Part shown: one piece after another, positions 2,301 to 58,800 of the stretch
How positions within the stretch are numbered: position 1 is the stretch's first letter
Layout: every line of letters starts with the position of its first letter
Assembly: GCF_026210795.1 (NCBI RefSeq)
Contig: NC_089430.1
Location: 3,658,001 to 3,722,000 of the forward strand
DNA from: Rhizophagus irregularis
Taxonomy: Eukaryota
Direction: 5' to 3'
Length of the DNA stretch: 64,000 nt
The notes under the pieces: generated by a model
The model's input: only the letters and a program-made list of their open reading frames with translations
Told to the model about the DNA's origin: nothing
The model's database searches: none
Position numbers and translations under genes: made by a program

Positions 2301-4055
2301 TAGTGCTCTAAAAAAAATCCGATCTGATCTGGATCCGCAAATTTGATCCGAGTCAGATCCGGTTTGGTTTTCAAAATTCTGATCCGTAGATCAGATCAGA
2401 TTTAAAAAAAATCTGATCCGATCAATTTCAGATCAGATCAGATCATAACACAAGAAAATCTGATCCGATCTGAACAGATTCAGATCAGATTTTTTTTTAA
2501 ATAAAAAAAAAAATTTTTTTTTTAAAAACTTTTCCTGGACGAACGGACGAAGCCGGACGACCAAGATTTAAAAGAACGAACTAGGTAAGTTCGTTTCTTT
2601 TTTTTTGTTTTTTTTACTTGAGGGAACGTATTTAACGGTTCCCTTCTTTAGTAGGAAGCCTGGACGAACGAAACCTAACGACATGACCAGGATTTAAAAA
2701 AAATGAACGAACTATGGTAAGTTTGTTCCTTTTTTTTATTTTTTATTTTTTATTTTTTATTTAAGGGAACGTAATTAACGTTCCCTTTCTTTTTTTTAGG
2801 AAACCTGGACGTGAGACGAAGGAACGACCAGGATTTAAGAGAACGAACTATGGTAAATTCGTTTCTTTTATTTTTATTTTTTATTTTTTATTTAAGGAAC
2901 GTAATTAACGTTCCCTTTCTTTTTTTAGAAAACCTGGACGTGAGACAAAGGAACGACCAGGATTTAAAAAAAAGAACGAACTATGGTAAGTTCATTTCTT
3001 TTATTTTTATTTTATTTTTTTTACTTAAGGGAACGTAATTAACGTTCCCTTTCTTCTTTTTTTTTTAGGAAACCTGGACGTGAGACAAAGGAACGACCAG
3101 GATTTAAGAGAACGAACTATGGTAAGTTCATTTCTTTTATTTTTTTTTTTATTTTTTATTTAAGGGAACGTAATTAACGTTCCCTTTCTTTTTTTAGGAA
3201 ACCTGGATGTGAGACGAAGGAACGACCAGATTTAAAAAAAAGAACGAACTATGGTAAGTTCATTTCTTTTATTTTTATTTTATTTTTTTACTTAAGGGAA
3301 CGTAATTAACGTTCTCTTTCTTTTTTTTAGGAAACCTGGACGTGAGACGAAGGAACGACCAGGATTTAAGAGAACAAACTATGGTAAGTTCGTTTCTTTT
3401 ATTTTATTTTATTTTTTTACTTAAGGGAACGTAATTAACGTTCCCTTTCTTTTTTTAGGAAACCTGGACGTGAGACGAAGCTGAACGACCAGGATTCAAA
3501 AAAAAGAACGAACTATGGTAAGTTCGTTTCTTTTTTTTATTTTTTTATTTTTACTTAAGGGAACGTACTAATTAACGTTCCTTTCTTTTTTTTAGGAAAC
3601 CTGGACGTGAGACGAAACTGAACGACCAGGATTCAAAAAAAAGAACGAACTATGTTAAGTTCGTTTCTTTTTTTGTTTTTTTTTTTATTTTTACTTAAGG
3701 GAATGTAATTAACGTTCCCTTTCTTTTTTTTTTAGGAAACCTGGACGTGAGACGAAGCTGAACGACCAGGATTCAAAAAAAAAACGAACTATGGTAAGTT
3801 CGTTTCTTTTTTTTGTTTTTTTTCTTTTTACTTGAGGAACGTAATTAACGTTCCCTTCCTTTTTTTAGGATAAGGACCAGATCTGAACCAGATTCGGATC
3901 AGATTCAAATCGGATTCAAATGGATCCGAACCAGATTCGGATCAGATTGAACCAGATCTGATCGGATTCGGATCAGATCAGATCTATTAAAATAAAAATC
4001 AGATCGGATCAGATTTAAGCTGAATCCCGTCTGAACCGATCTGTTAGGAGCACTA
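2301..4055. mobile_element. Non-autonomous hAT-like DNA transposon inserted in the LINE RNase H domain
   Basis: 8-bp TSD TTCTTGAA (2293-2300 and 4056-4063). TIR TAGTGCTC/GAGCACTA. Dense subterminal GATCCG/CAGATC motifs at 2316-2490 and 3878-4042. Removing it restores the frame ..DGFILE|SYYNTIPS.. Confidence 0.9.
2530..3870 (+). repeat. Tandem array of about 10 units (~130-140 bp), each a micro-exon plus GT-AG intron with hairpins
   Basis: Unit: TTTTTTAG|GAAACCTGGACGTGAGACGAAGGAACGACCAGGATTTAAGAGAACGAACTATG|GTAAGTTCGTTTCT..AAGGGAACGTAATTAACGTTCCCTT..TAG. Confidence 0.88.
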
Positions 4056-6194
4056 TTCTTGAATCTTATTATAATACCATTCCTTCTCTTTTCCCTTCTG
4101 CATTGCGTTCTGAAATTTTTGCTTTATTGCATGGATTGGACTCTCTCCCTCAGAATTCCAAGATTACTGTCGCTACTGATTGTGCTCATTTAATTTCCCT
4201 ATGGTCTACGTATGTGGATGCTTCTTTTATTCCTAAAATGCTTAAAGAATCCAACCACCTTTTATGGTCTTCGGCACGAGCTATTATTTCATAAAAGAAC
4301 CTAGAAGTTACTTTAATCAAGGTTCCTGCTCATGCTGACGATTCTTTGAATAATCATGTTGATGATTTAGCGAAAGCTGTTCATACGGACTCGCGTCTTT
4401 CCCTTCAGTCGCCTGCACTTTTGGCTCCTTGCATTTTACAATTTAATTCTTTACCTGTGGATATGAATATCCGAAAATTCATTGGAGAAATTTTTGACGC
4501 TAAGAATCTTTTGACTTTTGCTTTATTACCAAGATTCAATCTTAATTCCTCTATTCCAGACATCAATTGGGCTTGTACTAAATTTTGTTTTAATAATAAA
4601 CAATTACAATTTTCCCATCGCAATGGCCGCTCTGAATTTTGTGCTTTCTGTATCAAGATTTTATTGGATATGCTTCTGACACTCACAACTCTTTAGAAAC
4701 GAAAGCCTCATATCTATGATCCGAGTTGGCCCTGTCCTCAGTGCAACTCCTCTCCTGAGACCTTAGACCACTTATGGACTTGTCCTTATATTCTACCTGA
4801 ATTTAGCCCTTTTAATACTTTTAAAACTCTTCTACTGGACCTTCGTACTGTTTACCTTGATAAATTTCTTTTCGCGACTCCTTTGAAACCTTTACTGGAC
4901 TCTTTTGTTGCGGAATTTACGGCTATTGATTGTTGGGAATGTGACCCTCCTTCAAATTCCTGTCTGCGATTTGCACGTGGACTTATACCGATGTCTCTTA
5001 CAAGTTTTCTTGTAACTTATTTTTCACCATCCAATATTTGGTCTATCCTCGATACACCCCTACACAACTTTCATTTTGACCTTTATGTTCAAATCTGGTT
5101 GTGCCGTTCCATTTTCTTTCACCATTGGGAATCAGCTCAAGGCATTACTAATAAGATGAAATCGTCTGCTATTGGTCCTTCTTCTATTTCTCATCCTTCC
5201 TCTCATATTGTTCCTGATTTTTTGACACCTTCCCTGGCGACAGTTTCCTTGGATTCCTGGGTTTCTTGGGTTTCCTCTTATGTAATCCGTGGGGGATCTT
5301 GGATTTCGCACTTGGATTTTTGGCGCCGCTTAACAGTTCAGCCTCTACTTAGGATTTCTTTTTGGTAACGGATTGGATCTTAGGACATGCTGGATAGTTG
5401 ACTCACACTGGCCTTCGGGTAAAGTTGAGGTATGCGTTTCTGTAATAGTTTAGTTTTTCTTTACTTAATTTTATTTTGTTTAGATTTCTTTACTTGTATG
5501 AATCGTGAAGCTAGTTCTTTTTATTTTTTATGTTTAATTTCTATATTTGTTCTTTGTAATATTGTTCGATTTGATTATTGTACTTTTCGTTTAAAATTAA
5601 ATAAAAATAAAGTCAAAAGACTGTTTGCTCATAATCACCAAATATAGACTGTCCCAAATGTGTGACTATAAAGAGAGTTGACTGTAATTCCAAACATCTA
5701 GATCCCTTCTATACCATCATATTAAATACTAAGTCTTATTTAAAAGCCACTACAACTTGTGATTATCTAGCATCAATAGTATAGTTGTAATCTCCAAGTG
5801 GTATACTTTGTAGTAACCATTTAGACATTAAGATGTACAGCTCAATACAGAATCATTCTTTAAAATGGATATTAACCATAAGGAATTACCACCTAGTATC
5901 CATCCAGTGGAAAGTCAAATCCTATTATTAAACTATCTGTTCTGTTTAGAAATATACATATAGTACATGAAAAAAATAATTATAATAATATTTTTGTTTA
6001 TTGTATAACAAATATTTATTAAACTTTCATGAAAATTTAAACATACAGTCCCCTTGATATAACGAACTCTACGTTTCAGCCGATCAGGGCTTTGTTATAA
6101 GCAACTTCATTTACACTATAACGAATTATTTGGTATAGATATATTGGTCATATAAATCATGTGACTTGTTAATCTGATTACCGATAATTTAATT

Positions 6195-6665
6195 ACTAAT
6201 ATTTTTTTATTTTTTTTATTGTAGTGAACTTCCAGACTTCAAAATGATCGCCTGAAATGAGAAGTAAGTGGGAACAATTCATTTTTTTATTAATTTCGTT
6301 TAAGAATATTTACTACTAATGTTCTTTTTTTATTTTTTTTATTGTAGTAAACTTCTCAGATTTTGAAATGGACGTCTAAAATGAGAAGTAAATGGAGACA
6401 ATTCATTTTTTTTTATTAATTTTGTTTAAGAACATTTACTAATGTTCTTTTTTTATTTTTTTTTATTGTAGTAAACTTCCTGGACTTTGAAATGGACGCC
6501 TAAAACGAAAAGTAAGTGGAAAACTTATTTTTTTTTATTAATTTCGTATAACATTATTTACTAATGTTTATTTTTTTATTTTTTTATTGCAGGGAATGCT
6601 TCCTGAAGTGTTCTACTTTTTTTTGTAGATTTTAGCTTAGGACTTGGAAATGGAGACCGATAAGT
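6195..6665 (+). repeat. Tandem array of 3-4 micro-exon/intron units (~125 bp)
   Basis: Repeated ATTGTAG|T(G/A)AACTT..GAAATGGACG(C/T)CTAAAA(T/C)GA(G/A)AA|GTAAGTGG..AAGAACATTTACTAATGTTCTT.. Confidence 0.75.
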
Positions 6666-6724
6666 ATTTTTAAAGGGTTGGAACTTGGAAGTGGATTTTT
6701 AATTTTTTTATGTAAAAATGTTTA

Positions 6725-9215: not shown

Positions 9216-10520
9216 GATTAGTATGGTGGTCAATTTCGAAAGAAAAAATATATTTTTTTTGATATACTTTGATGTATTTTCCATATGATTTTAGATATTG
9301 AGAATTTGGTAAGAGAAGAGTTTTTTTAATTACTACTTTAACGAAATGTACTAACACTTGTTCTTTTTTTTAGACAGGTTCAAAGCATGGGATTTCAACT
9401 GCTGGAGCTCAGGGGTGTAGATTTCGGTGGATATTTTATAACATTTTTTTTTAAAATCTTTTTTTTTTTAATGTACTATTACTAACAGTTCGTTTCTTTT
9501 TTTTTAAGCGGGTTTTCATGATTGCTTTGACGGAATTTTTCTATTTTGTAAATTATACTAGTAGTTTATGTATTATTATTTAGCCGTATAATAAAATAAT
9601 TTATTGGCATTTTAAAATATATTAATCATGTTCTGTCAATGCAATCTTTACAAAATTGTGAAAATTATCATAAAATGGTTTTAAATACATTGTCAGGATG
9701 ACATATTTTATGATGTTCTGGTAAGCATCGGAAATGGGGTTCTAACGTGGTTTTCAAAATGATTTTTTATTATGTAAAATGTCTTTACAACCATATTAAA
9801 ATTCGAATTTTAAGTACATTTATGATATCATAAAAGTATCATACGATATCTTGAAAAAATTGCCTTGTCCAGTAAAAGTAGTCTCATTTTATTTACGAAT
9901 GTATATTTTAATATACAGTATTTGAAATGTATTAGAGACATTATTCTATTCAATACATTTACTAAGTTTTATCGACATGGTTAAAAATCGGAACGACTTT
10001 AATAATAATTCGTGACGATTTATCGGTAAATTGATCCACGATCGGTAGACGATTATTTGCATGATATGTTTACTATTCGGATACAATTCAATACATTCCA
10101 GCAAAGAATAAATTATATATTAAGCAAAATTATTGATATGAACTTTATTTATGATTAAAAGTGTTAATAATAAAAGTATTAATAATGTAAATGTTAAGTA
10201 TAATTACTAAATTATAGCTCCTCTATGCTAAATATTTACTATAAACTATTGATCGAATAAAAAAAATCAAAGCCAACAACCAAATGCTATAACATTATAA
10301 GACCAACAAGTTTCCACGAATATTTATTTTCTATCCCTTTTGTTCTTAGAGTATTAAAAATCTTCCAGAACCTTAAAGTATTATCGTCACCACCAGCTCC
10401 AGCTACAATGTCCTCTCCATTTGGAGAAATATAAAAATAAAGGACGTGATAAAAATGTAAAATGATATATAATAAAAATATATTATATAAAATTTATAAT
10501 AACGCTTCTCACTAGCCTCC

Positions 10521-29119: not shown

Positions 29120-30149
29120 CTTTACTGAAATATTCAAATCTAAAATAATATCTTAACGATATCATTATGAGATCGTAACGATTTCATGACGATTTTCTAA
29201 AATGATAACATATTGATATAGTTACGACTCTCTTAACGATAACGTAATAATACTGTGACGATACAGTGAATGATAACAAAACGATATCATCCAGATATTT
29301 ATTGATACTGAAATAGCATCATTTTAGTATCAGCACGATATCATCGCAGCAATGATACAGTGACAATACAGTGAATGATAGCAAAACGATATTATCCTAA
29401 CACTAAGATAGCATCATTTTGGTATCAGCACAATATCATCGCAGCAATAATACAGTGACAATACGGTGAATGATAGCAAAACGATATTATCCCGACACTA
29501 AGATAGCATCATTTTGGTATCAGCACGATATCGTCGCAGTATTATTACATTATCATAACTGTATCAGCATGTTATCATTTAAAAATCGGCATAAAACCAA
29601 TATGTTCCCATATTGATGTCGTTGAGATGTATAGAAAACAACTAATGATTATTCAGAATATCAATCATGATATCTTAACGATATTTAAATGTTATCAGCT
29701 TGGTATTATGACAATAATTAAAGTATCAATTTTATTAATAATCAAAATTTACTTATTACATATCTGATCATAAATAATAATTACAACATCGTTACTAGTG
29801 AAATTACTAGAACTAACTTTATTTCCATAGTATATGTGAAATTTAAAGCATTTACAATTATTTAATAATACCATTCAGTTTTTAAGAAATACGTGTAATT
29901 AATAATAATACCTACCATACTTACCGAAAATAAGATGCAACAATTGCAGACACAAGTGCTGTTTTAACACATACTAAATCCCTGATGGACATGGAATGAT
30001 TGTTTTGATTTTACCGCCAAGTCTATGGAAGCAACATCTCCAATTGTTCCTAAAAATACTCTAGTTGAATATGATATAAAGATAACGAGTGAGTAATAAT
30101 ATAATTTACTTATAATTTTTGATATTATAAAAACTTTGTTTATTAATAA

Positions 30150-30327
30150 CCTTTTGCAATATTTTATCGCCAATAGTTCCGCGCTCCTTGATAGGTTGTT
30201 ACTTCTTGGATGGTTGATATACGCTACATATTTCGTGTTGTCGGTCTTGATCAATACTGTCTGATTGGAATGGCCCTGTATTATAGAAGGGAAAATAAAT
30301 TGCTCTTAGCTCCAGGTGATTGATCAT
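30150..30327 (-). pseudogene. DIRS-type RNase H fragment
   Basis: INHLELRAIYF..VLIKTDNTKYVAYINH resembles the DIRS RNase H motifs HINxLEL and DNTTxVAYIN. Confidence 0.7.
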
Positions 30328-30735
30328 CTAAAGAACGAAGTATTAGTATTAGCATCTCATTTTTAAAGAATAAAGAAAATCAAGACTTCGAAGTAGTAAA
30401 ACCTTCGAAATCTTTGTATAAACTCTGTCCAATGATCAAGAAACTTAGAAATATAAAAGTGAACGTTAGATAACATTTGTTAAAATTTTTTTTTTGAAGT
30501 TTACCTTCAAAGTAAAGTCCAGGTCCGAACCTTTGGTGATATGTGTCCTGGAACCAACAAAAAAAGCAAATGAAGACGTTAGTTAACGTTTCGTTTAAGT
30601 GAAAAATAAAAAAATCGGATTTATCAAGCTTACCTTCGAGTAACAGCCTGGAAGCCGTGAACCTACAAAAGAGAAACTGAAATGTTTAGCTTCATTTAAT
30701 TGAGAAACAATAAATAAAAGAATTTCAAAGTTACC
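30328..30735 (-). repeat. Array of 4 hairpin-bearing introns separating 3 micro-exons
   Basis: Minus strand: GAAG|GTAAC, TCGAAG|GTAAGCTTGA, TTTGAAG|GTAAACTTCAAA, TTCGAAG|GTTTTACTACTTCGAA. Branch hairpin AACGTTAACTAACGT. Pyrimidine tracts end in AG except one degenerate acceptor (TTG). Confidence 0.6.
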
Positions 30736-31370
30736 TTCTAGGTGTAGTAAACTTTCGTTTGGAAGAGTCACTGAGCCATTCACCCTTTTAGCTTCAAACT
30801 TCTTTTTCTGTCGCGAAGTAACGCCCCAGAATGCAATCGTGCTGGAAAATCTGAGTTCGCAGTTGCCACAATCTTTCCTATCAACGAGGCAAGTTTTCGT
30901 ACGGGAGAATTTTGAGTTGTTTCGCCTTCTGACATTCCCTCACTAAGCTCTTTATTTTGTGTTTTGGCAATTTAAGTGTTATTGCCTTTGAATCGAATTT
31001 TAAACCCTAAGTAATCGATCACCCGTGTAGGAGTTAGATAAGATTTGTTTTCGTTTACTATGAACCCATGGTTCTACTAGCAATTTTACGATAATCGAAG
31101 CATGGTCTTGAGCCTGTTCTTTTGATGAAGCCATTATCAACAGGTCGTTTAGATAATCCACTATCCTTATTCCCTGAGCTCGATATTCTGGGACTTGTTG
31201 TCAAGCCGAACGGTAAACATGAGGAAATCGAATGCAAAATATTTTCGTTGGAACTCTGCTAGCGATATGTGATAGAAAAAGCTTGATTGAGGTCGATAGT
31301 GACCATAAAATAGCCGCGTCTCAACAATGACTTTACTAGGTCTAGTACATCTTGAAGTGGTTGTATTGAA
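30736..31370 (-). pseudogene. DIRS-type (tyrosine-recombinase retrotransposon) reverse transcriptase fragment, frameshifted and internally deleted
   Basis: VKSLLRRGYFMVTIDLNQAF/YHISLAEFQRKYFAF..GIRIVDYLNDLLIMASSKEQA..GFIVNENKSYLTPTRVIDYLGFKI/DSKAITLKLPKHKIK..KLASLIGKIVA..PARLH..NGSVTLPNESLLHLE. Confidence 0.8.
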
Positions 31371-31863
31371 CACGTTAGAATTTTTGAAGATTTGTAGCTA
31401 CTTTCGTTATGCTGTTTAGCTCTGGCGGTTTGACTGGCCACCCTAGTTGTCGTTTCCCGCAGGTTGATTCTTCCCTTTCCAAGTATTACTCTCATTTCTT
31501 CCTTTATAGTTGTTGTCGTTAGGTTTTTTAATATTGTGAAAAAAAACAGTAGTTAATCTGAAAAATAACTTACTTCAAACTTCAAAGGTATCAAATTTCA
31601 AAGAAACTGGTAATTATTTAACTTTAAATAAATATTTAAAAATAAAAAGTTTGGCGTAGAGGGATTTTATCAGTAAAACAAAAAAACAAAAAATTTAAGG
31701 TTTTTATTGGTTAATCAGATCCAGTCACGTGAAATAGCATTGCTAAATCACGAATATGAAGATCGATCGCTAAATGCATTATTTTAAATAACACTAAATG
31801 ATACCACCATTAATTTCATCCTACTAATTACAAATAAATATAATAAAAGTCCTTATTATAAAG

Positions 31864-34800
31864 TCATATAGCAGTAAAAAAAAAATCATTTTTTATCCAG
31901 CATTCATTCGTTGCATCATAAACAAAGTGAACCTTTTGCACACGGTCAATTACTAATATTGGGAATATTCTTCTCCAACATGTATCATAGGTTGCCTGAA
32001 TACGATAAAGAGGACATTTCAATACATGGTGAACTCTCTTAATTTCTTCAAACCAATCAATAATAATAAATGCATAAAATTTATTATTGTTGGCTTTATA
32101 TTTGAAGATTCCTTTTATAATTGCATAACATTCATCATGATTTTCTTCTTGTATTGTTACAAAGTCACCAATATGAAGATGGATTTTGGAGAAGACACCA
32201 CTAGTAGTTTCTTCTATTATATAGGTTGCCAATTTATACCAACTCATTTGAGAATATATAAGTGCTGACTTAAATCCAATATCTTCAAATGAAAGGAGCA
32301 ACTCAGAATTGAAATGTGGCAAGTTCAACATAATATTTTCACGATCTTGTTGGGATACCCCCTTTTTTAAAGTAATATGTGTAATAAAGTTTACTGGAGA
32401 AGTTACTATAATAAAATTACAATGTATAAAATTAATCATTCAGTAATCAGATTTGAATTTTAAAAAAAAAATAGTATCAAAAAATTTTGCACAAATTTTT
32501 CTTGATTAGAATTACTTAGTAAATAATAAAATTACAATACAAACCATTATCTTGTTCATCATGTTCATTTGATGTTTCTTTGTTTTCAGTAATATACCAA
32601 TTGGTTAATATATGCCTAAAATTTGATGTCAGAGAAGCAAACCCATTACAACTTTGAGATAACCTATAATCTATACCACCATCTACTAGATGACGAATTG
32701 CAAAAAGTGTGGTATATCGTTTTAATAAATCTAATTCAATATTCTTGCGATTTGTCCGGGGTACCATTGCTTTAAAGACCCGGTGTACCATTTCTTTGAT
32801 ACCACATTGAGTATTTATAAGAGTACCATAAGTTTTTGCATGCATTAGTAAATGAACACTAACATGCAGATTTGGCAAGTTGACAAATTCAGAGAAAACC
32901 TAAAAATCATTTATTATTAGTAAATAATTAATTCAAATTGCTATACTAAGTAATTATTTATACCTTTGGAAGAATATTCATTTCTTCTTTAAGACTTTGC
33001 TGTAATTCTTCATAAGAATTTATTGTAAACTTGCTTTTAAAGACCATACTCATTGTTTTTGCTATATGAACCCAACAAGTTATTATTGTATTTTTTACTA
33101 AATTAATACGTGATGCACCAGTTCGTTGTTGGATGTTTTTTGCCTCATTATTCTTCAAACTAGTTATTTTTAAAAACCGATTTAATATGAAAGGCATTAT
33201 TATAGCAAGCCGAAGGTAATCAGACATCATAAAACTTTCCCGGTGGCTAATGGGATTTGGTATACGTGACCATGTCTTTGGTTTCTCAAAATCTTTTCAG
33301 GTTTTAATGAAATCATTTTCTCCTTCTTGTGAAAATAATTCACAAGTTAATTTGAGTAGACGTCCAATTTTTCCTGCAGTAACATGGTAAATATCTTGTG
33401 GTGTTTGCAAATGTCTCTCTCTTTTCAGTTCATCTAAAATATTAGGCTGTAATTTCAATCCATATTTCCTACTAAGTTGTTTTTTTTGAGAAATAACTGT
33501 TTCAGCAGATATTAAAGCAAATTCAGAATCTGTCAAGTGATGATATCGAGAAGTTAAAGCTATATTTTGAGTAAAATCAGTAAATGAATCTTTACTTATA
33601 GTACAACTTCTACACCCCTTATTAGCATTTTGTCGCAATACACCAGCCAAATCATTACCTTGGGGTAAGTCAGCTGTTACAACTCCTATGCTTGCAATTA
33701 CCCAAACATCCTGTCCTTGTATATTCATTACTTTTCCTTTTTCAAGTTCTTTTATTTCAGAAATAAAAGGTTTTATAAACTCATTAAAATCACCACCAAA
33801 TGGGACAAATCCAAGGACAAAGTGATTTTTAAGCAACTTCCTTTGATGACTTGGCATATTTCCAAATTGTATATAAACACCTCCTAATGAATGGTAGACA
33901 TTTCGGTATGTGCCAAAATCATCATAATAAAGATCCAAAAATAGTTTGCAGACTTTCATGGAAGGAGATGGTGGTGGTCTTGTTATGATATAATCAGCAG
34001 GATGTTTATATGAAAAATCTACATTACGAATGCGCCAGTAACTATTATGTCTATAAACTATTTCAGTAATATGCAATGTTTCTTCAGGAATGAGATTATG
34101 CTGGAATATCATCATCACAGTAGCTTTTTTAGAAATTTGTGATATTCCAATTATTTGAAAAGATAGGTCTTGTAACCAAACTTCACCAGTAAGAGAACGG
34201 TTCCATCTTAGTACTCCCTTAAAAGCTCCAGGCAAATCATTATAATATAGAACTTTTTGGATTCTTAGCTGATATTGCTTATCAACTTCATTCATTAATA
34301 TTGCTCTCAATCTACCAAGGTGCAATTGTTCATTATTGTCATTATCATAATAATAAATAAAATCTCCACATCTATATGTCTCTATTAGATATAAAAAAAC
34401 AATAGAATTATTTTACACAAATTATGAATAAGAATAAATAACAAATATGATTATATGATCATTACCTTGTAATATTGTTAATTGTTCTTGGCCAAAAAGG
34501 GGTGATTCTGCCCATAAAGTTCCATGCCAGTATTCAGATTTTATTTCTGAATGAATACCTGGACCAAAATACATATTATTAACTAATGATGGATTACTAA
34601 GGACATGCCAAATAATATCATTTATTGAAAGTTGATATGCTAATTTTGAGTTTTTAGAAGTTGATGGTGTTTTTTTTGATGAAATTGGGATAGATTTTGC
34701 AGATATTGAAAGAAGAGGAAGATGTTGCCTCCATGTTCGAAATCTTCGGATATTTCTTACAATATGATTCCTATTGAATTCTTGATTCATAATAATATCA

Positions 34801-35447
34801 ACAAGATCTTCATACGCATTTGTTGAGATATCATGTTTATGAATCCAACAAAATAAAGCAGCAGTAGTAAAATCTTGGAAATATGGTGCAAAATTGCCAT
34901 TAAAATTTGGTAAATTGCTTTCATCTAGCGCTCTATCAATGAATATTTTTTCCTCTGATGAGGGATTAGCAATATTTTCTCCGCTTTCTGAAGATGTTGT
35001 TGTATCACTTTGTGATGATGCATAAACATGGTTTTCACCTTCTAGAGATGTTCTTCCTGTATCGCTATTATAATCATCATATTCTTCGTTTTCTGAAGAT
35101 GCTGTATAATTATCATCATTTTCTGACGATGTTGCATAATCATCATTTCCTGCATTCCCATAATCATCATATTCTTCGTTTTCTGAAGATGCTGTATAAT
35201 TATCACTATTTTCTGATGATGTTGCATAAATATCATCATTTCCTGCATCCTCATCATCGTCATATTCTTCATTTTCTAATTGCATATCAACATTATAATT
35301 ATTTCGTTGTTCATTACTATTATCAAAATTGTCACTACCATTATCATCATTTGGTGGTACTATTGTACCTTGTGGTTGCCTTCTAAAATTATTTCGAATA
35401 CGAAAAGGTAATGTAGTAGTATCCCTTCGTGCTCTATTTCGCAACAT
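31864..35447 (-). CDS. CMC/EnSpm(Plavaka)-like transposase of the inner element; 4 exons, one nonsense codon
   Basis: Exons ~35447-34467, 34382-32964, 32899-32543 and 32411-31864. LDLYYDDFGTYRN, VVTADLPQGNDL, GCRSC, PQDIYH. TGA at 33297 where the outer copy has W. Colinear with 26299-29119 plus 44351-45102. Confidence 0.88.
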
Positions 35448-36515
35448 TGTTAACAATCAAAATCAAAATTCTAAATTTTTATGAATATACAAAAATTAAT
35501 GCCTTATTCGTATATTTGCTTATAATGCAATAAATATTATTATACTGACCTATACGGTGGCTATAGTGACTGAAATATACGTATGTTGACTGAGCTAAGC
35601 TGAAGCTGAATCTCTGAATCGCCAAGTAAAAAATACACCAATCTTTTTTATATTGATATCTTGAAATTCAACAAAATCCCGGTTTCACCTTAATATGTCC
35701 TTTTCTTGATAAGGATAATCAAAATACACAAACATATATGAGTCAAACACAACGGATGCATTTTTCTTGATAGAACGTGACACAATTATTTTAGTTGTAT
35801 TACTTTCGCATCGATCAAATCACAGCACGTAAATAAAATAAAAATATTACAATAAAACAATAAAATAAATATAATAATGTTTTTTAATATATGTAAATTT
35901 ATTAGTGAAGTTGGAAAAATAAATTTAAAGGGGAATAAAAGAATAAAAAGGAGACGATAAAGTTGGAAATATAAAATAAAAAAAAAGTCAAGCCAACACC
36001 GATTATCGGTGTGGTATGATACCAATGATTGTTACTTAACAATGTTAATGTATTTCGTACAGAATTGCATATAATTTATTTTAATTGTAAAACTATTGTA
36101 AAAATTGAAGTCTGCATAATTAAATAGTAATCGCGAATTAATCATCGGTAGATCAGTATTCTATATAAGGTTAAAATTTATATTGTTCTTCCTAGCCAGA
36201 AATCAATCGGTAAATTAAACTAAATAATAGTTATCAATCGGTATTATTAAATAAATCAGGTGACCTTGTAGTAATTACATCTACTTGCGTCACATAATCT
36301 ACAACATGCAGATTTTATCAAATATCACTTTAACAAAATTTATCATGCATCATCGTGTATTATTTGTTATTAAGAAAAAAGAATTCTCAATGATGATATT
36401 ACTTTATATATCATCACATCATACATCAATAATATTCTGTCACAACAATAATATCACACCAATAATTTTTATTACAATATATTGCAACTTCACTGCATTT
36501 TATTACATTTTTTTA

Positions 36516-38284
36516 TTAAAATTTCAGTGAGCTAGCAAAATTCTTTCCACTACGGGACGGAATTTCTAAATTTTCCGTATTTTTATCTAATCTTTTGATT
36601 TGATTATAGAAAGCCTTAGTGTTGGTTTCGTTCCTTTCCTCCCACGCAATACTAAAACATTCTCTCGAAAATTCAATTAGTTTGTCCATTGATATTTCTG
36701 AAATTTCAGATATATCAACCGCAGAAAAATAGCGGTTAAGAATTCTCTTAATAGCAACTTCACATGAAATAAAATTGGTAATCTCAACTTGAGTTTCTGT
36801 TTCTGTAATAGTTCCTCCTCTTTATAAAAAAAAGGAAAGAAATTCATATTGACATTAGTTATAAATACAATTATAAATGCAAATAATATTATATTGATTA
36901 CCTTTCTAATTTTTTTTGAAATTCTCAGACTAATTCTTCAATTGACACCCTAAGCTGATAACGATAGTCTGAAAAGGATTTTCTACATCGATCTATAATT
37001 GATTTTGCTGTGCTACTATAAGTTTCAAATTCGGGAAAAATTTTTCGTACTAGTTTTTCAAAAACGAGACCAGGTGGGAACCGAGATCTTAAAAAAAGAC
37101 ATTTTATTTCTTCATCGATTAACCTATATTTTTCCTAAATAATAATAAAAGTTTTTGTGAAATATTTATGAAAATTATAGTCACAACAACTGAATGTATC
37201 GATCGAAATACAATAAACGCTTACATTGGATGCGGTTGATGGCGCGTGTGCTGGCTGCTGCACTGCTAGTGCTAATTGTGACGTACTATCCTTCATATTT
37301 AACATTTGAGTGGCTAGCTGCAGGATATCCGGATGATCAACTAGCCAATTGCAGATTTGCAATTGGTTTGTCATCGATTCGAATTGGGGGGGAACTTGAC
37401 GTCATATTTATTTTATTAATAATAAATGAAGATATTTATGTATAACAAAATATTGTATTAAACAAGATTTTACCAGAATAGTTATCGTCTTCTTTTTCTC
37501 TATAATCTTGATCATCTTCTCTTTCATTTCTTCTCCTCTTAATTCTTTCTCTATTCTCTATTTCTCGTCCTTCTTGTTCTTGATGACGACAGAGGGGATT
37601 CTGACGTTCTCGTTCTTGTTCTTGACGACCACGGTGAGGATTCTGACGTTCTCGTTCTTGTTCTTGACGACCACGGTGAGGATTCTGACATTCTCGTTCT
37701 TGTTCTTGACGATCACGGTGGGGATTCTGACGTTCTCGTACTTCTTGTTCTTGACGATCACGGTGGGGATTCTGACGTTCTCGTACTTCTTGTTCTTGAC
37801 GACCATGGTGAGGATTCTGCTGATCTTTGGAAAGATCTTATCATTATTTATTATTGTTTTATTATTGTGTGTTATTATCGTTTGTTTTTAATAGTTTTTA
37901 AGTAAAAATTAATATCTTCAATTGTATATAATAAAATGCAAAATTCATTAAATTCATAAATTAAGATTCTATGACTGACCTCCGAGAAAATCTATTTCGT
38001 CATCCTCATTGCTTATTTCATCGTTAATTCCTCCATCCTCATCGTTAAATTCATCATTAACTTCTTCGTCTGTTCCCGATACAGTTTTTGCTCGACCTTG
38101 ATTAGTTTTCGCAGCTTTTGATTGACTTTGAGCAATTCCTGCAGCTTTAATTCGACTTGCCGCGGACTTTGACTTTTTAGTAGGTTCTGTTATATAGATA
38201 GCATTAAAACCGCTATTCAAAAATCAAAAAAAAATCAAAAAAAAAGGAACCAAAAAATATTCAAATATTACTTGATCGAACCAT
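36516..38284 (-). CDS. Cargo gene D: multi-exon paralog of gene C with NPHRDRQEQE(V)RERQ repeats
   Basis: TNQLQICNWLVDHPDILQLA, EEIKCLFLRSRFPP, KRILNRYFSAVDI, IPSRSGKNFASSLKF*. 42-45 bp repeats at 37575-37820. Confidence 0.75.
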
Positions 38285-41200
38285 GATTTAAGAATACCAA
38301 TCAGATCAGAAAAATCTTAACCCATGGGAAAATAAAGTGTCTCCTGCTCTATTGTATTTATATCTGACTCTAGCAGTATAAGAACCTGTTTATTGGTAAT
38401 CATGCCTTGTCAAACCATTTTCTGAATGCCACTTTTCTGAATATACTTCTCCCTAAATCAATTATCTAAAATGCCAATTTTCCAAATAGGATCTTTCCCT
38501 GAAATATTCACGAATCTGTATTTCCTGAATTCCAAATTCCTGATGCTCAATTTCCCAAATCCCGAAACCTAATATATCCTTATACCCAATATCCCGAATG
38601 GGCAATTTCCCGAAATATAAAATAATATACTGTAATCTCTTTTAATTCATATGATTTATTATAAACTGTGTAATAGATAATGGATGAGAATTATTGTGAT
38701 AAATACTTTGTTTCCATAAATCGGAAATTGGCTGATACAGATGTACATATATCGTAAACAGATCAACGGATCGATCTGTTTATATACTGCAGTCACGATA
38801 ACAAAATTTTCCGGTTATGCACTTAACTGCTGTAATCATTGACCTATCGCATATTATTTAAAGTAATGTAAGAATATTAAATAATTGGCCAAAGATATGC
38901 ACATATAAGATCAAATGATAAAAGAATGAAGTCAAAAAAAAAAAAAAATTTTTTTAAAAAAAAAAAATTTGAAAAAGGAGTGCAGTGCAAGGAGTACAAA
39001 AAAAAAATTTAAGGGGCCGAAATGCAAAGCGGATAACCCAAATCAACCCGGTAACTTACGTGATCAAAGTATGTATCCTGGGAAATTTTCATAAGATAAA
39101 AAGGAAAAAAATTTGTGTATTATTAATTTGGAACATAATCATTGTGCTATAAACCCGATTTAGGTAGTAACTAATATGTATTTTATTTATATTTAAAATT
39201 TTTCTTCGTTTAAGAGCAATGATATAAAAAACAACATAAAAAACATATTTTATATACAATATACAGTGTATTCGACTTTTTAGTATACTGTAACGTTTCT
39301 CCAAATAAAAGAATTGGTATTGATATTGACCCAAAAAGAAAAGATGTAGTTAAAATTGACCGTAGCCCAATTGTAGAACAATATCCAAAATATTGTGTGA
39401 ACGCTAAAACGAATTTGCGTATTAAATATATTTTTTACAACTCCAACGGATGATCATGCATAATTAGATAAGCCATGTAACGGTTGTTACAAATAAATTT
39501 ACAAAATGTTTATATTATACTGTACGTGAATTTTATGATCTTTATATATATGTAAGAAAAATATTTAAAGAATTTATTATATAATCTTAATTTTATTTAT
39601 AGATAGACAATAATTAATTAATTGATTAGGTTCGTCAACGAATTATATATACTTTAGTAACAAACCTATTTCTGTTTTCTTGTCTAATACGCGTTGCTAA
39701 CTCCTGCACGCTATAAATTTTTTCCTAACGAATATCACATCTCCCTTTTCAAAATCTTTCTCAATATTCCTATCTGAATGAAGGCTTTGATTTTCAAATA
39801 ATTATTTTTTTGGATCATTAGCGTCTAATATTGACACAGCCGTAACCTCTTACTCTTGAGTGAGCCTTTCGCTAGAACCATGTAGAAACTTGGACATTTT
39901 TTGATAAATAGTATTTGTGGAGGTTCGGGTGCAATTGGTGTAAAAAGTTTTTTTGTTAAAATATTTTTTTACATGAAATTAATGAAAAAATCTAAAGGAT
40001 GATGACTTTTTATACCTTTTTTTATAATGTTAGAAATCTTCTTTTTTTCAAATTCATTCAAAAATTCAAAATTCGTTAAATTCGATCGTTGAAAAAAATT
40101 GATAATTTAATAATTGAAAAGAAGGAGCCTCAAATTTTCATTTTCCCTATGGAAAAAACATCATGAGGCATGAGACTTCGTTATTTCATTATCATTCTCA
40201 CGAGGCAATCACTTGCCATTATATTAAACGTCCGTATAAGGAACTGTAACATTTTTTTTCGTGAAATGATTTTTTTAATTAATTAATAAATCCAAAAAAA
40301 ATTTTTTTTAAGGAGGTTAAAAAAAAAAAAATCTTGGATTGAAACGTAATGATATAAGTTACAGGTCAGCAGCATCAGTGTAAATATATAGTTATATATT
40401 TATTATTAAAACATGACCTCTCCTTCAAGGAAAAAGAATCATACAATATATTTTAGATATTTTAACATGAATATTTGTAATTGCATACTTCAATCCCATA
40501 ATTCACAGTTTTTTATAAATTATTAAATTTTTTATTGTAGTTACAAATCGTTACCATCCTAGCAATAGGCATTGTACAATTGGTAGATCTAGCTCTGCTC
40601 TACCATTTCGTCTAACGATGGACATTGTATAACTGGTATCATTTTTTTTTGGGTTGTCATTAGTACCGACGTCCTCGTCGTGCAACCTGGGTACTAGTAA
40701 TATGCTAGTAGCAAACGGGTACTACTAAAATTGAAAAGAATGAAGCTGAAGCAAACAATTAAACTTTTTTTTATTGTTATTACACGTGAATCTTTTTTAC
40801 TAGTTATGAATTTTTTTTATCCGCTAATAAAAAACTTTTTTCACATGGTTTTTTCACGTTTTTTTTATATGTATACATTTTTTAAAATATTGATGAATTT
40901 TTTTATGTGATAATTATGTAAACAAGTCATTTTTTTTATAAAATAAATATTTCCTAAAATGATAATATTCCTCGAGTTTGATCGTTCGATTAATGATCTC
41001 AAGGCTATCTCTTTTTTTTGTATATAAGAACAAAAAAATGATTATTTTTTTAGTACTCCAACGTAGCGGAAGAAAATTTTTTAGGTATGAATTTATAAAA
41101 TTTTTTCTTTATATAAATTGACTTCAATAATTTAATTTATTTTTATTGATAATTTATTTAATAGAAAAATCAAAGCAGTGGTTTTAATTTTTTTTTTTTA

Positions 41201-41889
41201 TTAATTCAACGCGCAGTCAGCAGCAGAAAAAATTTTTTTAGGTACGAATTTAATAATTGACAATTCATATAGAGAGACAATTCATAAGCTACTATTAACA
41301 ATTAATTGATTAAAGCATGTCGCCACCTGGATCATCAAGAAAAAGGACGAGAAAGACCTATTTCCAGCGTCATACTCATCGTCAAAAAGACAAAGAAGAA
41401 AGAAGATGGAAAGATAAATCCTATGAATTGGAAAAGAAATATGATAATCTTTTGGAAAATTCTGCATTTTTTCTTATTTGGGGATTTTTTATTATTGTAG
41501 TTTTTATTTTTATTTTTATTGCTATTTTAATTAATAAATACTATTAGTATAAATACTTCTAATTTCATTTGCTGATTTTGATCACTTTTGACTATATTCT
41601 CAAACCTGACTTTTTAAAAATGATTGAACCCAACTGTACCACCACAGATTTGATGGTGATGCAGGAGACTAAAATCAAAAATTTGACCATGATCTACATT
41701 AGATATTGGTCGAATAATGCACTAATTAAACGTCACGCGTATTTAAAGTTTAAAAAAGGATCATCTTTTTTAAACTCCCCTTTCCCCTTCCACTTTCCCT
41801 CCTTTCGTTCGTCCTCCCTTTCCCTTTCGTCCTTCCCTTCCCCTTTCGTTCTCCCCTTTTCTCACACCTTCTTCCGCCTCTTTTTCTTG

Positions 41890-43570
41890 GAAGTAATGTA
41901 AGTTTCGTTTCGAAACTTACATATCTTTTTTTTAATTTTTTTTTTAATCTTTTTAATTTTAATTAAGAAACGAACTAACGTTTCTTTTCGTTATTTTTTT
42001 TATAGGACGTGTAGGAGGACGCCGGCTTGTTCACGAAACCGGACTTTAAGGTAAAAAACGGGGAAAGGGGAAGGAGGAAGGGGTTTTGGAACCTAAAATT
42101 CTTAAGAATCTTGGTTTTATTTATTTATTTTTTTTATTATTTTGGAACGGTTTACTAACCGTTCCTTTCTTTTTTTTATAGGCTCGGTGTATTTCCGACG
42201 AATAGATGAACCAAGATTCGTAAGTACGAGTACGAATCTTGGTTTATTTATTTTTTTTTTTAATATTATGGAACGGTTACTAATAACCGTTCCTTTCTTT
42301 TTTTAGGTTTCGGTGGAGCTTCCGAGTTCCGAAGAACAGAAAAACTAAGATTCGTAAGTAAGTACGAATCTTGGTTTTGTCTTTTTTAAATATTATTAAC
42401 GGTTACTAATAACCGTTTTTTTCTTTATTTTTTTAGGTTCGGGTGTCTTCCGAAGAACGGAAAAAGAGGACCAAGATTCGTAAGTACGAATCTTGGTTTT
42501 GTTTATTTTTTTTTAATATTATGAACGGTTACTAACCGTTCTTTCTTTTTTTTAGGTTCGGGTGGGCTTCTGAAGAACGGAAAACCCAAAGATTCGTAAG
42601 TACGAATCTTTAATTTTTTTTATTTATTATTACGAACGGTTTACTAACCGTTTTTGTATATTTTTTTATAGGTTCGGGTGGGCTTCCGAAGAACGAAAAC
42701 CCAAAGATTCGTAAGTACGAATCTTTACTTTGTTTTTATTTTTTATTATTACGAATGGTTTACTAACCATTCTTTCTTTTTTTTTATAGGTTTGTGGGCT
42801 TCCGAGGATCGGAAAAAGGAGAACTAAGGTTCGTTACGAACCTTGGATTTTTTTTTATTATTATGAACGGTTTCTAACTGTTCTTTTTCTTTTATTTTTA
42901 TAGGTTCGGTTGGCTTCCGAAGATCGAAGGAACCAAGATTCGTAAGTACGAGTACGAATCTTGATTTTTGTTTTTTTTTATTATTTTGGAACGGTTTACT
43001 AACCGTTCCTTTCTTTTTTTTAATAATTTCTTACGTTTGTAGGACGGTTCCTTGGAATTTTCTTCAGCTTTGGTAAGTTTCTTTTGAAAATTTATTTCTG
43101 GGAAAGGGAGGTGCAGCTGGTGTTTTTTCATAGTAATTAGATAAAATTTTTTTTTTACACCATAGCCACCATGTACGCTAGGAAAACGGAATCCTTCGTG
43201 TTGCATAACTCGCAAATGTTACGTGTAGGACGTGTAGATGTCTTGGAATTGGTAAGTTTTATTTTTTTATTATTAATTTTGATTTTTTTTTATTAATTTT
43301 TTTATTAATTTTTTTTATCTTTTAATTTGTAAAAATCGATAGTTTCACACTTCCCGGATCGAATTAGTAAGTTTTTTCACTTAAAACTTTTTTTAAAATT
43401 TTTTTTTATTATTATTTAATTTTTTTATTATCTTTTTTTGTAGTTTCGGCTTCCTTATCCCGGATCAGTAAGTTTCAAAACGGTTCGTTTTGAAACTTTT
43501 TTTTTAAGTTTAATTTTTCCGAATTTTTATTTCAGATCGGACTTGGACTTTATTTTTTTTCTTTAGGTAT
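41890..43570 (+). repeat. Tandem array of ~12 micro-exon/intron units (~115-130 bp) with hairpins over the 5' splice site and branch point
   Basis: Unit: TTTTTAG|GTTCGGGTGGGCTTCCGAAGAACGGAAAACCCAAAGATTC|GTAAGTACGAATCTTT..GAACGGTTTACTAACCGTTC..TAG. Confidence 0.88.
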
Positions 43571-44350
43571 AGTTAGACGACTTTTAACATTCGTTCTTTT
43601 CAAGATGTGATCACGTGATTTGAACTTTATCTTTTTTTTATTTATAATATTAGATAAATGCTAATATACGTGTACTGTAGCATTTAATAAATTAATAAAT
43701 TTGAAATTGAACTAATATTAAACTAAATTAATAAAAAAAATATTGAAGAATAAATTGGTCATCTTTAGAGCTTAAAATTTTGTCGAATAATATTTATCTG
43801 AACTTGTGCCTTAATTTGACTACTATTAGACCTATAGTCAAATTTAGGTTGAACGGTAGTGTAATGATAGTTGAATATTCTTTCCGTATAAGACGATTGG
43901 CACCCGAACTGCGCCAAAAAATTCGACCTTAATTTGACTTGTCTTTTTTCAACTAGTGTAAAAAAATCGTTTTAGCAATATTAAACCGATATCAATATGA
44001 TAATTATTTGTTGTTTTAGCGATATCAACATATTATTGATTTAACATTTTTAAAATAATATCGTTATGATATATTTTAATACTGAATTGATATTATATCA
44101 ATATCGTGTTTTTTCACATTTTTTTAAAAAAATATCATTGTCATTTTGACGATATTAAAGTGATATCGATTTGATATTTATTTAAATAAATATCTCTACG
44201 ATATCTTTTTGATATATCAAATCAATATTGGAACGATATCATCCTAATATTATAATGATATCATCTGCAAATCGATATCACTACGATATAGAATTAACAT
44301 CATTATTATATCAATTTGGCATTGTTTAAAATTTTGAGGTTTCTGTAAAG

Positions 44351-45102: not shown

Positions 45103-46124
45103 CTTTATTATGCAGTACAATATCTCATGATTCTTTTCGGTATATTTATTTATGATAACGTGATTTATTAAATAAATAAAGATAACGATATCGTTACGAT
45201 ATCGTTTGATATCGTATTCATGAATTTATTAGGCACGTGACTTTGCAATTTTTATCCAATCAAATCATTGTTTGTTAGACATGTTAAACATTCGCACGAT
45301 TATGTTTATGTCTACATCTCTCTATTCAATTTTTTTTTTAATACCGAAAAACATTTTGACAGTTTTTGTTATCAACAGTATACTTTATTCAAAAAAATAT
45401 ATTCATATTAACAATTACAGTCAGACCACTGTATATGCGCGTCTATTTTTATTCTGGCGTACGACAGGTACATATTCTGCTCTCGCTGGGTTATGTTAAA
45501 CTATCTTTGATATTTATATAACGCGTCAAAAATAATTACGCGTTCAGTTTTAATAGTTTTTACCTTTTTATAATAATTTTTTTTTCATATCAATACCCAA
45601 AGAAAAAGAATAAAGGGAAAGAAGAAAAAAAAGAAAAAAACCATTGTGAAAAAACGAAAAAGAGAAAACAAAGGAACGAAAAGAAAGAGAGATTATCCTG
45701 AAATTTTTTCACAAAAGGTACTACTGTACTTGGGGGATCATTCGAGGGTTTTTTTTTGGCCGCTGATGGAAATGCACCATTTTTAAGACCTCTATATGGT
45801 AGGCCGTATCATGGAGGCAGGGTATGCACATAGCGAAAGCGCCGTGCTCCTATGTAATACTTGGGATCTTGTGGTATCGGAAGGTAGTGGTGATGTATCA
45901 TTGGTCATAGGCAGTTGGGTGCTAATGGCTGACGACCTAAGGGACACTCTAATGAGGTAGGCCCGCCGGATGAGCTCAACCCACTTATTGCATTTTTTGA
46001 TTCTTAAGGTTGAAAATCTTGGTGACCCAAGTGTTCTGAAACCAATTTTTATTTAAAAAAAAAATTTTGTTTGATTTCTATAAACGCAGTACTTTAATTT
46101 ATGCATCTTTTTTAGGATTAACAA

Positions 46125-46334: not shown

Positions 46335-46414
46335 TAGTATTTAATATTTGTGACGAAATCCGATAATGTTGTGCGTAACTACTCCATTATGTTATAACGA
46401 TATCGTCACGTTGG

Positions 46415-46860
46415 TTTATGTTAACCATCCGGGAGAGAGATGTGTCTAATTTACCAGGTACGATCGTATCTTTAATTTCGCAGAAACTTGCACCATAATC
46501 CGTGTACTTATTAATTTAACAATTGTCACAAAGTTTCGATACAATATTAGTGTCATAACAGTTAACCATCTGGAGAGAGAGAGATGTCTAATTTACCAGG
46601 TACTTATCTTTAATTTCGCAGAAACTTGCGTTGTATGTAATACAGACTCTTGTCAATTCAGTATTTGATATAATATTAGTGTCTTATGTTAACCGTCGGA
46701 GAGAGAAGTAATTTACCAGGTGCGTCGTAATCAGGAAACTTACATCAATTCAACATTTATAATATTATTGTCATACCGATATTGTCACATTGTTTTATGT
46801 TACTAGAGAGGGATGCACCTACATAATTTACCAAGTACGATTAAACTTCGCAATACTTAC
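46415..46860 (+). repeat. Degenerate tandem repeat (~125-140 bp, 4 copies)
   Basis: GTTAACC..GGAGAGAGA..TAATTTACCAGGT recurs near 46420, 46561, 46688 and 46800. Confidence 0.75.
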
Positions 46861-55865: not shown

Positions 55866-58800
55866 TATTAGTCCAGAGTGAAGCGAAGGACTATATACTA
55901 TTCATTTCAGTTTCACAAATATCCTGATATCTGCCTGCTCACTGTATAAGTTGATGCTTATACAATCGTATTGGTTCTTTCGGTTTATTTATGCATGTAA
56001 TTTTATTTTTTATAAAAATAAAACAACTACTTTCATTTGATGATCACGTCATACTGTTTATTTTTAATTTTTTTAATTAATAATCATTTTTTTTGTTTGA
56101 TTTTAATTAATCATTTTTTTTTGTTTGATTTTAATTATTGTTCAATTTTCTATTTTATATTTGAAAAAAATAAAAAAATTTAAAACAACCTGTAACGAAA
56201 AAAATAAATGTAAAAATAAATGTAATATTGTTTATTTAACCTGAATTTTAAATGATCCATTTATTATATTTTTTTATATATATTCTTTTTATTCAAAACA
56301 ATAAAAATTAAATAAAAATAATTAAGCTCTATGACAACGCGTGTCTTGCAAACAAATAATACAATTCTATCAAGCTATCCTGAAAGTAAGCTGTTCTTCC
56401 TCCGCCTTCCTTTCCTGACCTGCTGCTGTTTTTAATATGTTAAAGTCTATCAAATGTAAATTGTCTGAAATAAATGTCATTAAGAGAACGAATGTATGAT
56501 ACCATGATGAATGTTAGTCCAGCAGTGAATTCTTTACTTCCAATATTGATTTTGGCCTTTGACAACGTCAGACCTTGACTTTTGTGTACAGTTATTACCC
56601 ATGCTAGGCAGAGAGGAACTTGTTGTCTAAAACATATCATCCCAGACTTACCTTCCCAACTTCTTTTAATGGACACTATTGGAACAATATGGTCTCCTTC
56701 TGTTGATATTATGGTGGGTCCTTCATATGCGTTGAACTTGACGAAAACTGCTGCTGGAAGTGATGGTGGACTTTGATTTTTGAACAGGATGTCATGAACG
56801 ATTCTAATCAATCCGTTCACTAATCCTCCTTTGGTCCACAGGTTTGCTGTGAGCATTACTCGAGCTCCTTTTGCCAATAATAACTGAGGTTCAAGTTCCT
56901 TTGCCACATCTGAACTGGCTTTTTTGGCTTCATTTTCACCGGTATGAACTGCCATAATCTTGGCCACAGGTCGCTTCAAAGATCTGAGCTTCTTTATATT
57001 AATTTTGTCAACATCATTTCACGTTGTTAATAAGAATACAGCATCTGAAAATCTTTCACGTTCCTGCTGATTTAGATTCTCTTTGAACCGTATACTGAGT
57101 ATCTTCCAATCATCAAGGCTGCTTTCCCCATCACACATCCTTAGAAGTATGTCACAGAATTCTTTTTGTTCATTTGAATTACCTGTTTGCCTTAGAATTA
57201 CGTCGAGCTTGAATACTTCTCTTATACGTTTATATGCAGCTATACCTTTATTAGAATTTCCGTCTACACTTGTGTTCTTGGAAAATATAGGAACGTCAAG
57301 TACTGGCGGTAATTAACCAAAATCGCCAAGTAATATGATGGATCTTCCTCCGAAGGGCTCTTTGGAATTTTCAGGAAAAGCCTGTCTTAATCTCACATTT
57401 ATTATCGCAAGCATTCGACGTCTGATCATGCTTTCTCGTCTATTATTAGATAAATTACTTTTTGTAACCTTTCTTGTAATTGTTTCAGTTGCCTGCTATC
57501 AAGTTCAAGGTTTTTTGGGTTGCGTATCAGTATGGAAAGCGTTGAGTGTATTATTGATCCATTTATATTAAAGGCTGCTACTTCTGTAGGTGTAATAACC
57601 AGAATTGGAGAATCAGTGTCAGTTCCTGCCATTTTGTGAAGTTTCTGCCGTATCATTTTGATAAGATACAACTTTCCCGTACTAGCGGTTCCCATTATCA
57701 TAATCCTTAACACTTTTGACCTTCTTCCCATTGAGAATATCATTGTAATGTGATTTTATTCGCGGGAATATTTTTTTGATTTTTGTTTAACTTTCGATAA
57801 TCTATTGAATCAATATCAACTTCTCTTCCGTCTAATATCCCAGAATTCGAAATGTTCTTAATGAATTCATCAACACTAGCAATATCGTTATTGGAGTAGT
57901 TTTGTTATGCGTCAGTTATCCAATTGTGATTCTGATCTATATCACGAGAACTAAGATCGGATGCGCAATGTATGATCGCTTTGAAACCCATCTTCACAAG
58001 CCGCATCCAGTCGTACGTATATTGTTCCTCATCCTCATCTTCGTCCTCTTCGAACGGTAGTTCATCTTCACTTTCTTCATTATAAACCTCTTCATCGTCA
58101 ACAGGTTGTTTGAGCAAGTTCTGTGATGCATTATTTATCATATCTATATGTTGATCGTATAAAGTAGACCAATTGATATTGCCGTTTTTCGTAAGTACTT
58201 GCATATTGCAATGTCGGACGTGGAGTAGAACTTTTACTCTGCAATAAGCCTCCCATTGATATCCGTTATGATAAGATGATGGATGAGGCCAGACACGAAC
58301 TATGTTTTCTTTCTTACACTTTTCTATTGACCCCTGGAAAACCTATGCGTAAGGTATAATTCAAATAACGAATAATCTTCTAATTCTTCTGGTCGTTCCC
58401 AATATCTTTTTAAAGCTGATTGAGTTGTACGTCCAGTGTCTTCTACGTTATTTCTACTACCTGTGCCTTGGATCCACTTTAACTCTTCCTCGTTAACATT
58501 TAAATATACAAAGGAACGACTTAAATGATATAGTGCAGTTCCATTAAGAAGATGACAGGTTTCCTGAGCTGATATGTCGTGTTCCAATACGCTGTTGAGT
58601 AGGTCAGTAGGAGTTTCTGAATTGAAGAAAGTGAAGAATTGTCAGGATTGCTGTTGTTAAGAATTTGCTTGAAGATCTCAAAGAATGCCAGTGAACTTGG
58701 TTCCGTTTTACTGGTATATTTTGATATATATTGGAGCGCTGTGTGAATGCTAAGAATAGGCTTTAAAGCCACATTTGCATCCCTGTAGCTGTATTCTGTT

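Follow-up and report, generated by a model that had tools for sequence, protein, structure and literature searches.

The window (the whole 64,000-nucleotide stretch of Rhizophagus irregularis DNA analysed here) is an AT-rich transposon nest, in which the 3' interval of a large and putatively CACTA-like element carries two decayed pieces of a DIRS-type pol, one from the reverse transcriptase (RT) and one from the RNase H, separated by an array of micro-exons and introns (Table 1). These pieces are supported as collinear, non-coding and DIRS-type. As to how they came together, the explanation judged probable, with appreciable room for doubt, is that template-switching DNA repair brought the DIRS fragments together and that they afterwards persisted as functionless, eroding cargo of the transposon.

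Table 1. Features of the chimeric locus and its host transposon, in window positions.
Feature	Position	Strand	Remarks
Host DNA transposon, inner element	29120..44350	-	15.2 kb; CTTTAC...GTAAAG termini; TA duplication
Host 3' terminal and subterminal repeats	29120..29700	.	Repeats of the 15.2-kb element
Next predicted exon	29925..30060	-	GTAAGT donor at 29924 follows
Intron 5	30061..30150	-	90 nt, GT...AG
Non-DIRS exon end	30151..30171	-	Probable host sequence, before donor at 30150
Decayed DIRS-type RNase H piece	30172..30327	-	INHLEL to ELL; profile match; end from related contigs
Array intron 4	30328..30402	-	75 nt; weak donor GTTTTA in loop of 12-bp hairpin
Micro-exon 3	30403..30443	-	41 nt
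Array intron 3	30444..30504	-	61 nt; 7-bp hairpin around donor
Micro-exon 2	30505..30554	-	50 nt
Array intron 2	30555..30633	-	79 nt; acceptor TTG here, AG in other alleles or copies
Micro-exon 1	30634..30662	-	29 nt
Array intron 1	30663..30734	-	72 nt, GTAAC...TAG
GAAG exon end of array	30735..30738	-	Overlaps last DIRS codon; loose end at 30738 in run X8
Decayed DIRS-type RT piece	30739..31522	-	Many frameshifts, small deletions; start approximate, significance from 31380 down
Array-type exon 0	31574..31606	-	CAG acceptor before, GTAAGT donor at 31573 after
CACGTGAC...CCAAT promoter-like motif	31706..31731	-	About 133 nt past transposase stop
Host transposase	31864..35456	-	Multi-exon; CxxC motif; weak BAH matches; CACTA/CMCT-like

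A phmmer search with 31003-31200 gave four matches, namely two R. irregularis gene models that cover the same RT/array/RNase H chimera and two RVT_1 proteins (E-values of 2.4e-5 and 9.3e-4), the better of which led to three longer proteins that combine RT with RNase H; a Dam match was present as well in two of the three. It is the RT-RNase H-Dam layout of these references that marks them as DIRS, and the profile comparison covered this DIRS-type set alone. Against a frameshift-tolerant profile built from the three reference proteins, no shuffle scored as high as the RT core (144.7; 100 shuffles), the 3' part of the RT (35.3; 300 shuffles) or the RNase H piece (43.2; 300 shuffles), which bears out the DIRS-type identity proposed in the preliminary description of this DNA. 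The first 140 nt of the RT piece (31522-31380) were not significant against the profile (58 of 300 shuffles as high), pol similarity upstream of that piece did not exceed chance (72 of 300), and no methyltransferase was detected downstream of the RNase H piece (93 of 100), where the fragment stops before the position of that domain.

The remaining DIRS sequence comes to about 940 nt and keeps a DIRS trait, in that RT precedes RNase H in pol order with similarity to DIRS-type pol. As had been described, the RT is frameshifted many times and reads IVDYLNDLL (YLDD is visible in reference proteins P0008-P0010), continues up to LLHLE and is followed by GAAG/GTAAC, with the GT at 30734; the last acceptor (TAG at 30328) likewise opens on M-INHLELRA, with TDNT..VAYINH in another frame. 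Internally, the RT piece skips reference stretches of 7-11 residues, and a reading of the profile alignment puts the gap from LHLE to INHLEL at some 57 residues of the references. The reported lack of a WW..TDAS..GWG segment, of which TDAS..GWG is visible in the same three reference proteins, was upheld, since the spliced micro-exons 1-3 scored 14.0 against that segment, a value equalled or exceeded by 159 of 300 shuffles. With all introns removed, each frame of the product contains 13-22 stops, so that it is non-coding, as previously stated. Other searches were less sensitive: Pfam on fragments returned RVT_1 only (E 0.14-0.17), and no Pfam match to gag or tyrosine recombinase was obtained on 12 local stop-free fragments, a search that also missed the window's own RT pieces. 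In the ESM Atlas, an RVT_1 cluster at rank 7 (score 0.89) was taken as a lead only, and kinase clusters returned for the RNase H piece were rejected as unrelated. An exact 21-nt scan of metagenome contigs gave no matches, none of 25 candidates for protein P0001 in viral contigs was confirmed, and none of 390 candidates scored when P0001 was compared with longer proteins.

The intervening array had been characterised as three micro-exons with hairpinned introns. Three exons, which sum to 120 nt, and four introns are indeed present, but the hairpins held for only two of the four donors: that of intron 4 is strong (0 of 300 shuffles as high) and that of intron 3 modest (10 of 300), whereas introns 1 and 2 have none (189 of 300 and 209 of 300, respectively). 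Array units have (T)TCGAAG or TTTGAAG at their ends, and their donors tend to be buried in a hairpin; at intron 1 the hairpin is lost where DIRS sequence replaces its 5' arm. GAAG/GTAAC, earlier taken as the exact end of the RT at a donor, does follow LLHLE, but GAAG/GT belongs to the array. The intron 2 acceptor is lost in the window copy, and other alleles have an AG one base further on that is used by the P0002 model; alleles restoring AG in this way could mean that splicing matters. In the window copy, the splice signals of the array are decaying, and an automatic intron scan picked up none of its introns. Taken as a set, its branch-point stems show no excess over shuffles (131 of 500 as high), and those of the arrays at 42 kb and 3 kb were matched by 0 of 500 shuffles each. 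A transposase-intron control for branch hairpins gave 12 of 500, a figure not relied on because the ends of two of its three introns are imprecise; it hints that branch hairpins may be common in ordinary introns of R. irregularis. The claimed likeness of a micro-exon to the exons at 42-43 kb survives only as a weak resemblance of micro-exon 1 (3 of 300 shuffles as high at best, among 21 comparisons). Given the array-type exon 0 on the upstream side of the RT and the lack of terminal repeats around the block, the DIRS pieces sit within the array cassette and not the reverse. They are thus not split by a separate repeat-bounded insertion, in keeping with the earlier reading of them as captured; no inverted match of at least 6 nt was found at the ends of the cassette or of the block.

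The inner element interrupts the transposase of an outer, related element (8248-47757), with which it has in common its termini, its transposase (73-79% DNA identity) and one accessory gene; the 3' intervals of the two do not align beyond chance. Without the inner element, the outer one measures about 24 kb; among its several accessory genes, those at 10.5-12.5 kb and at 14.8-16.7 kb form related pairs. Its own 3' interval includes a patch of 50% GC (45720-46050) with no Pfam match and no alignment with related loci L009 or L010, as well as repeats (46390-46850) that end in AATTTACCAG/GT and are common to L009. The host transposase family appears to be CACTA/CMCT-like, judging from motifs read by eye and from the account of such families in PMC12730594: the transposase has C(2)C and His motifs and the target duplication (TA) falls within 2-5 bp. 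The 5'-CA...TG-3' ends usual in CMCT are absent from the host element, which ends in CTTTAC...GTAAAG, and no Pfam Plavaka match to the host was obtained. The outer element has CACGTGAC...CCAAT in the equivalent place (45234), likewise about 133 nt past the transposase stop, and a promoter role for this motif seems plausible. The locus also has the Pack-type trait of a foreign fragment within intact terminal repeats and a target duplication. The CpG observed/expected ratio is 0.26 in the inner transposase (33300-34412) versus 0.83-1.19 in the DIRS pieces and array.

Eleven metagenome loci with a transposase end at 68-80% identity were compared with the inner element. Their downstream DNA (228-4098 nt, with less than 500 nt at three loci) is of unrelated types; DIRS pol lies downstream of none of the 11 transposases, and no close sibling of the inner 3' interval was found among them. 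Compared across related elements, along the lines suggested earlier, the 3' interval does vary. Loci L009 and L010 resemble the 3' interval of the outer element, and L009 has hairpin-intron pieces. Across seven related loci and four window intervals, 0 of 68 frames reached the Pfam cut-off, a test of low sensitivity that missed the window's own RT. At L002 (8250-8278), the last letters of the contig are the terminus of the family and a subsequent TA, so that an independent sample confirms the definition of the end.

Among the sequencing runs listed, 20 of 24 (from nine studies) contain the stretch or part of it, and three may be its source. Run X1, a possible source, has the stretch in one identical contig, run X5 differs from the window locus at 9 positions in 1806 nt, and conservation of the locus between isolates is about 99.5%; over 31102-31549, a single contig at 80% likeness was obtained in each of four runs. 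No separate full-length donor RT was thus seen, a result not counted as evidence because contigs show presence and not absence. Diverged relatives also occur among the contigs listed: runs X12, X15 and X8 have additional array contigs (10-14 differences over 124-179 nt), and in runs X5, X12, X15 and X8, contigs matching the RNase H piece continue past 30172 as RNase H-like sequence resembling the W..CL.R stretch found in the reference proteins, which places the end of the DIRS sequence at 30172, 21 nt before the donor. The contigs that run past 30172 are likely linked to the diverged array copies, and since diverged contigs cover both the array and the RNase H parts, the fusion may predate the window copy. 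Among the same listed contigs, a path skipping 30172-31029 is present in runs X15 and X8, and a further 10-nt deletion in run X19.

Of the four junctions, two coincide with a splice site or are no more than 4 nt away from one. In a contig of run X8, a related array exon ends in TTCGAAG/GT and is preceded by non-DIRS sequence; in one of run X12, the related intron 4 runs on for about 10 nt to another AG, so that the intron-4 acceptor of the window may be a product of the junction. GAAG at 30735-30738 is likely a microhomology junction, although its shared GAA(G) was seen on the array side only, no donor DIRS DNA or empty cassette copy having been obtained.

Three runs (X17, X18 and X19) are only guessed to be RNA, and the contigs of these runs, which drop rare forms and show neither strand nor level, cross the array introns unspliced in all three cases among those listed. 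The segment 30150-30061 (GT...AG) is left out of one X19 contig, whose shorter flank measures 20 nt; as this contig starts at 30170, it contains no DIRS sequence. This joint, the only intron-like one among the contigs listed, begins downstream of the DIRS sequence, and the same intron is retained in one X17 contig. Run X18 has a single contig at the locus; because it lies on the array, the region may be transcribed.

If the chimera arose by repair, a longer DIRS stretch would have been copied into the first intron of the array, a break in that stretch would then have been filled with 3.5 array units in place of about 170 nt, with GAA(G) serving as microhomology, and later deletions would have trimmed the RNase H end; the array would likely be transcribed from the motif at 31731 and, at this locus, likely be left mostly unspliced. 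Microhomology at breakpoints is described as typical of Pack-TIR gap filling (PMC8277862). The repair reading also draws on the DIRS-type identity and collinearity of the pieces, on exons that are of array and not of DIRS type, on the X8 exon preceded by non-DIRS sequence, on the lost donor hairpin of intron 1 and on the lack of terminal repeats around the block. Erosion is read from the skips within the RT, the X19 deletion, the path that skips 30172-31029 and the longer RNase H contigs, and variable cargo from the non-aligning inner and outer 3' intervals together with the 11 related loci that lack DIRS pol. Counting against repair are the junctions near splice sites, not something to be expected of blind repair, the one-sided view of the microhomology, the conservation of the locus, the AG-restoring alleles and the possible transcription. 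Ordinary nesting differs from the repair reading only in that the DIRS would have arrived by its own integration: a whole element would have inserted in the array cassette and lost both ends, and the array block in its middle would stem from a related array by later ectopic repair. The nested state of the window, the many internal deletions and the related contigs with more RNase H than the window copy would all suit such a history, yet complete loss of both ends is required, DIRS terminal repeats were not found, and there is neither methyltransferase downstream nor pol similarity upstream (see above); it is regarded as rather unlikely. An origin at the RNA level, whereby an exon-skipping array lariat spanning the first GT to the last AG entered a DIRS RNA by reverse splicing or template switching, was copied into DNA by the DIRS RT and was later captured by the DNA transposon, would draw on the extent of the block, which starts 4 nt ahead of a donor and stops at an acceptor, and on the possibly greater age of the fusion indicated by the diverged contigs. 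It accounts neither for the roughly 170 nt of DIRS sequence that were lost nor for exon 0 upstream of the RT, the related X12 intron continues to another AG, and the scenario is accordingly held to be highly improbable. Almost no credence is given to the micro-exons being the missing DIRS segment itself, cut by four gained, introner-like introns. In a lenient frameshift alignment, the TDAS and W-T motifs did pair loosely with exons 2 and 3, and the summed exon length was also counted in favour; the lenient alignment strayed into non-homologous sequence, however, and reliance was placed on the strict profile test, in which exons 1-3 were unremarkable (as given above) and control exons gave 84 of 300 and 189 of 300. 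Related arrays without DIRS have similar exon words, and in place of precise insertion into intact coding sequence, as with introners, some 57 residues are lost and the exons are not DIRS-derived.

The preliminary description had viewed the locus as a spliced chimera that displays foreign sequence, in the manner of a small-RNA trap: a spliced non-coding array would turn foreign transposon sequence into small RNA, for instance through slow splicing at hairpin-buried sites, and thereby silence DIRS elements or divert silencing. Retained introns would fit a stalled-spliceosome route and were counted in favour of this proposal, as were the junctions near splice sites and a promoter-like motif conserved in position. 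Small RNAs of R. irregularis come from all transposon superfamilies (10.1101/2021.03.30.436303), and in maize, captured sequence serves as a reservoir of siRNA (PMC13317346). Nevertheless, the display itself was not supported: splice signals and hairpins are decaying, the listed contigs from the guessed-RNA runs are unspliced, and the sole joint among them is free of DIRS sequence. In addition, neither the 11 related loci nor the 68 Pfam-searched frames yielded DIRS pol or a match at the cut-off, respectively, and the best-preserved arrays (3 kb and 42 kb) are runs of like units without such an insert; on balance, the trap is deemed highly improbable. Because two junctions sit at splice sites, which neither repair nor nesting explains, the trap and the RNA-level origin nonetheless keep a small probability. 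A broader form, in which DNA transposon arrays of mycorrhizal fungi, with hairpin-buried donors and branch points, act as a mobile splicing-coupled trap that takes up transposon pieces at splice sites and feeds small-RNA silencing, the present locus being an ageing example, is likewise considered quite unlikely; repeated uptake of varied transposon fragments across copies was not seen among the 11 related loci.

Similar arrays are found elsewhere. At 2301-4055, a non-autonomous and probably hAT-like element (TAG...CTA ends, 8-bp duplication), inserted in a LINE, contains about ten near-identical exon/hairpin-intron units (2530-3870). A second array of the inner element (41880-43560, + strand) has its donors looped out by hairpins of 10-23 bp and its branch points within stems of 8-10 bp; as it reads outward at the other end, both ends of the inner element carry outward-facing arrays. 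Further small arrays of the same style occupy 6200-6700, following a CATGTGAC motif at 6158, and 9250-9510, and hairpin-intron pieces like those of the window lie inside a tandem repeat of a related metagenome element (L009, 2680-2810). A decayed Helitron-like element, with Pif1, Helitron_like_N and DUF6570 matches, is present at 56440-60700. Non-coding micro-exon/hairpin-intron arrays are thus associated with at least two unrelated DNA transposon types in the window and with a metagenome relative, and no published description of such arrays was found in searches of an open-access library; existing repeat libraries (PMC11075540, PMC12730594) may already include the host family. On the favoured reading, the locus is a modest case of transposon-in-transposon capture and a useful illustration of large CACTA-like elements of mycorrhizal fungi gathering and eroding cargo. 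The array family is a better lead than the DIRS capture: if these arrays couple splicing to silencing, or to escape from silencing, they would represent a new side of transposon control in mycorrhizal fungi.

Several known systems invite comparison. As in Pack-TIR and Pack-CACTA capture, foreign fragments lie in a DNA transposon with terminal repeats, with likely microhomology, low copy number and possible transcription (PMC8277862, PMC13317346); here, however, the cargo is another transposon and not a host gene, and it is broken into two parts interspersed with units of the intron array. Those papers cover animals and plants; the donor in the present case was not recovered. DIRS elements have the layout RT, RNase H, methyltransferase, and fungal copies are mostly short or truncated remnants (PMC3783388). 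The order of RT and RNase H agrees with the DIRS of early-branching fungi, the closest full proteins having RT, RNase H and Dam, whereas an intron array parts RT from RNase H at this locus and neither methyltransferase nor terminal repeats were found. Plavaka/CMC families are common in R. irregularis (PMC12730594; PMC11075540), and the host resembles the CMCT clade (Plavaka, EnSpm, ESTA) in its CxxC and subsequent His motif and, as in ESTA, its TA duplication (PMC12730594). Its ends differ from the CA...TG, TGT...ACA or CATCA...TGATG of that clade, as does its large variable cargo, intron arrays included. Lastly, introners and Glomhopper introns (PMC13465315) are also repeated, hairpin-forming spliceosomal introns tied to transposons; in place of the precise coding-sequence insertion that marks introners, exon and intron here repeat jointly in tandem non-coding arrays.
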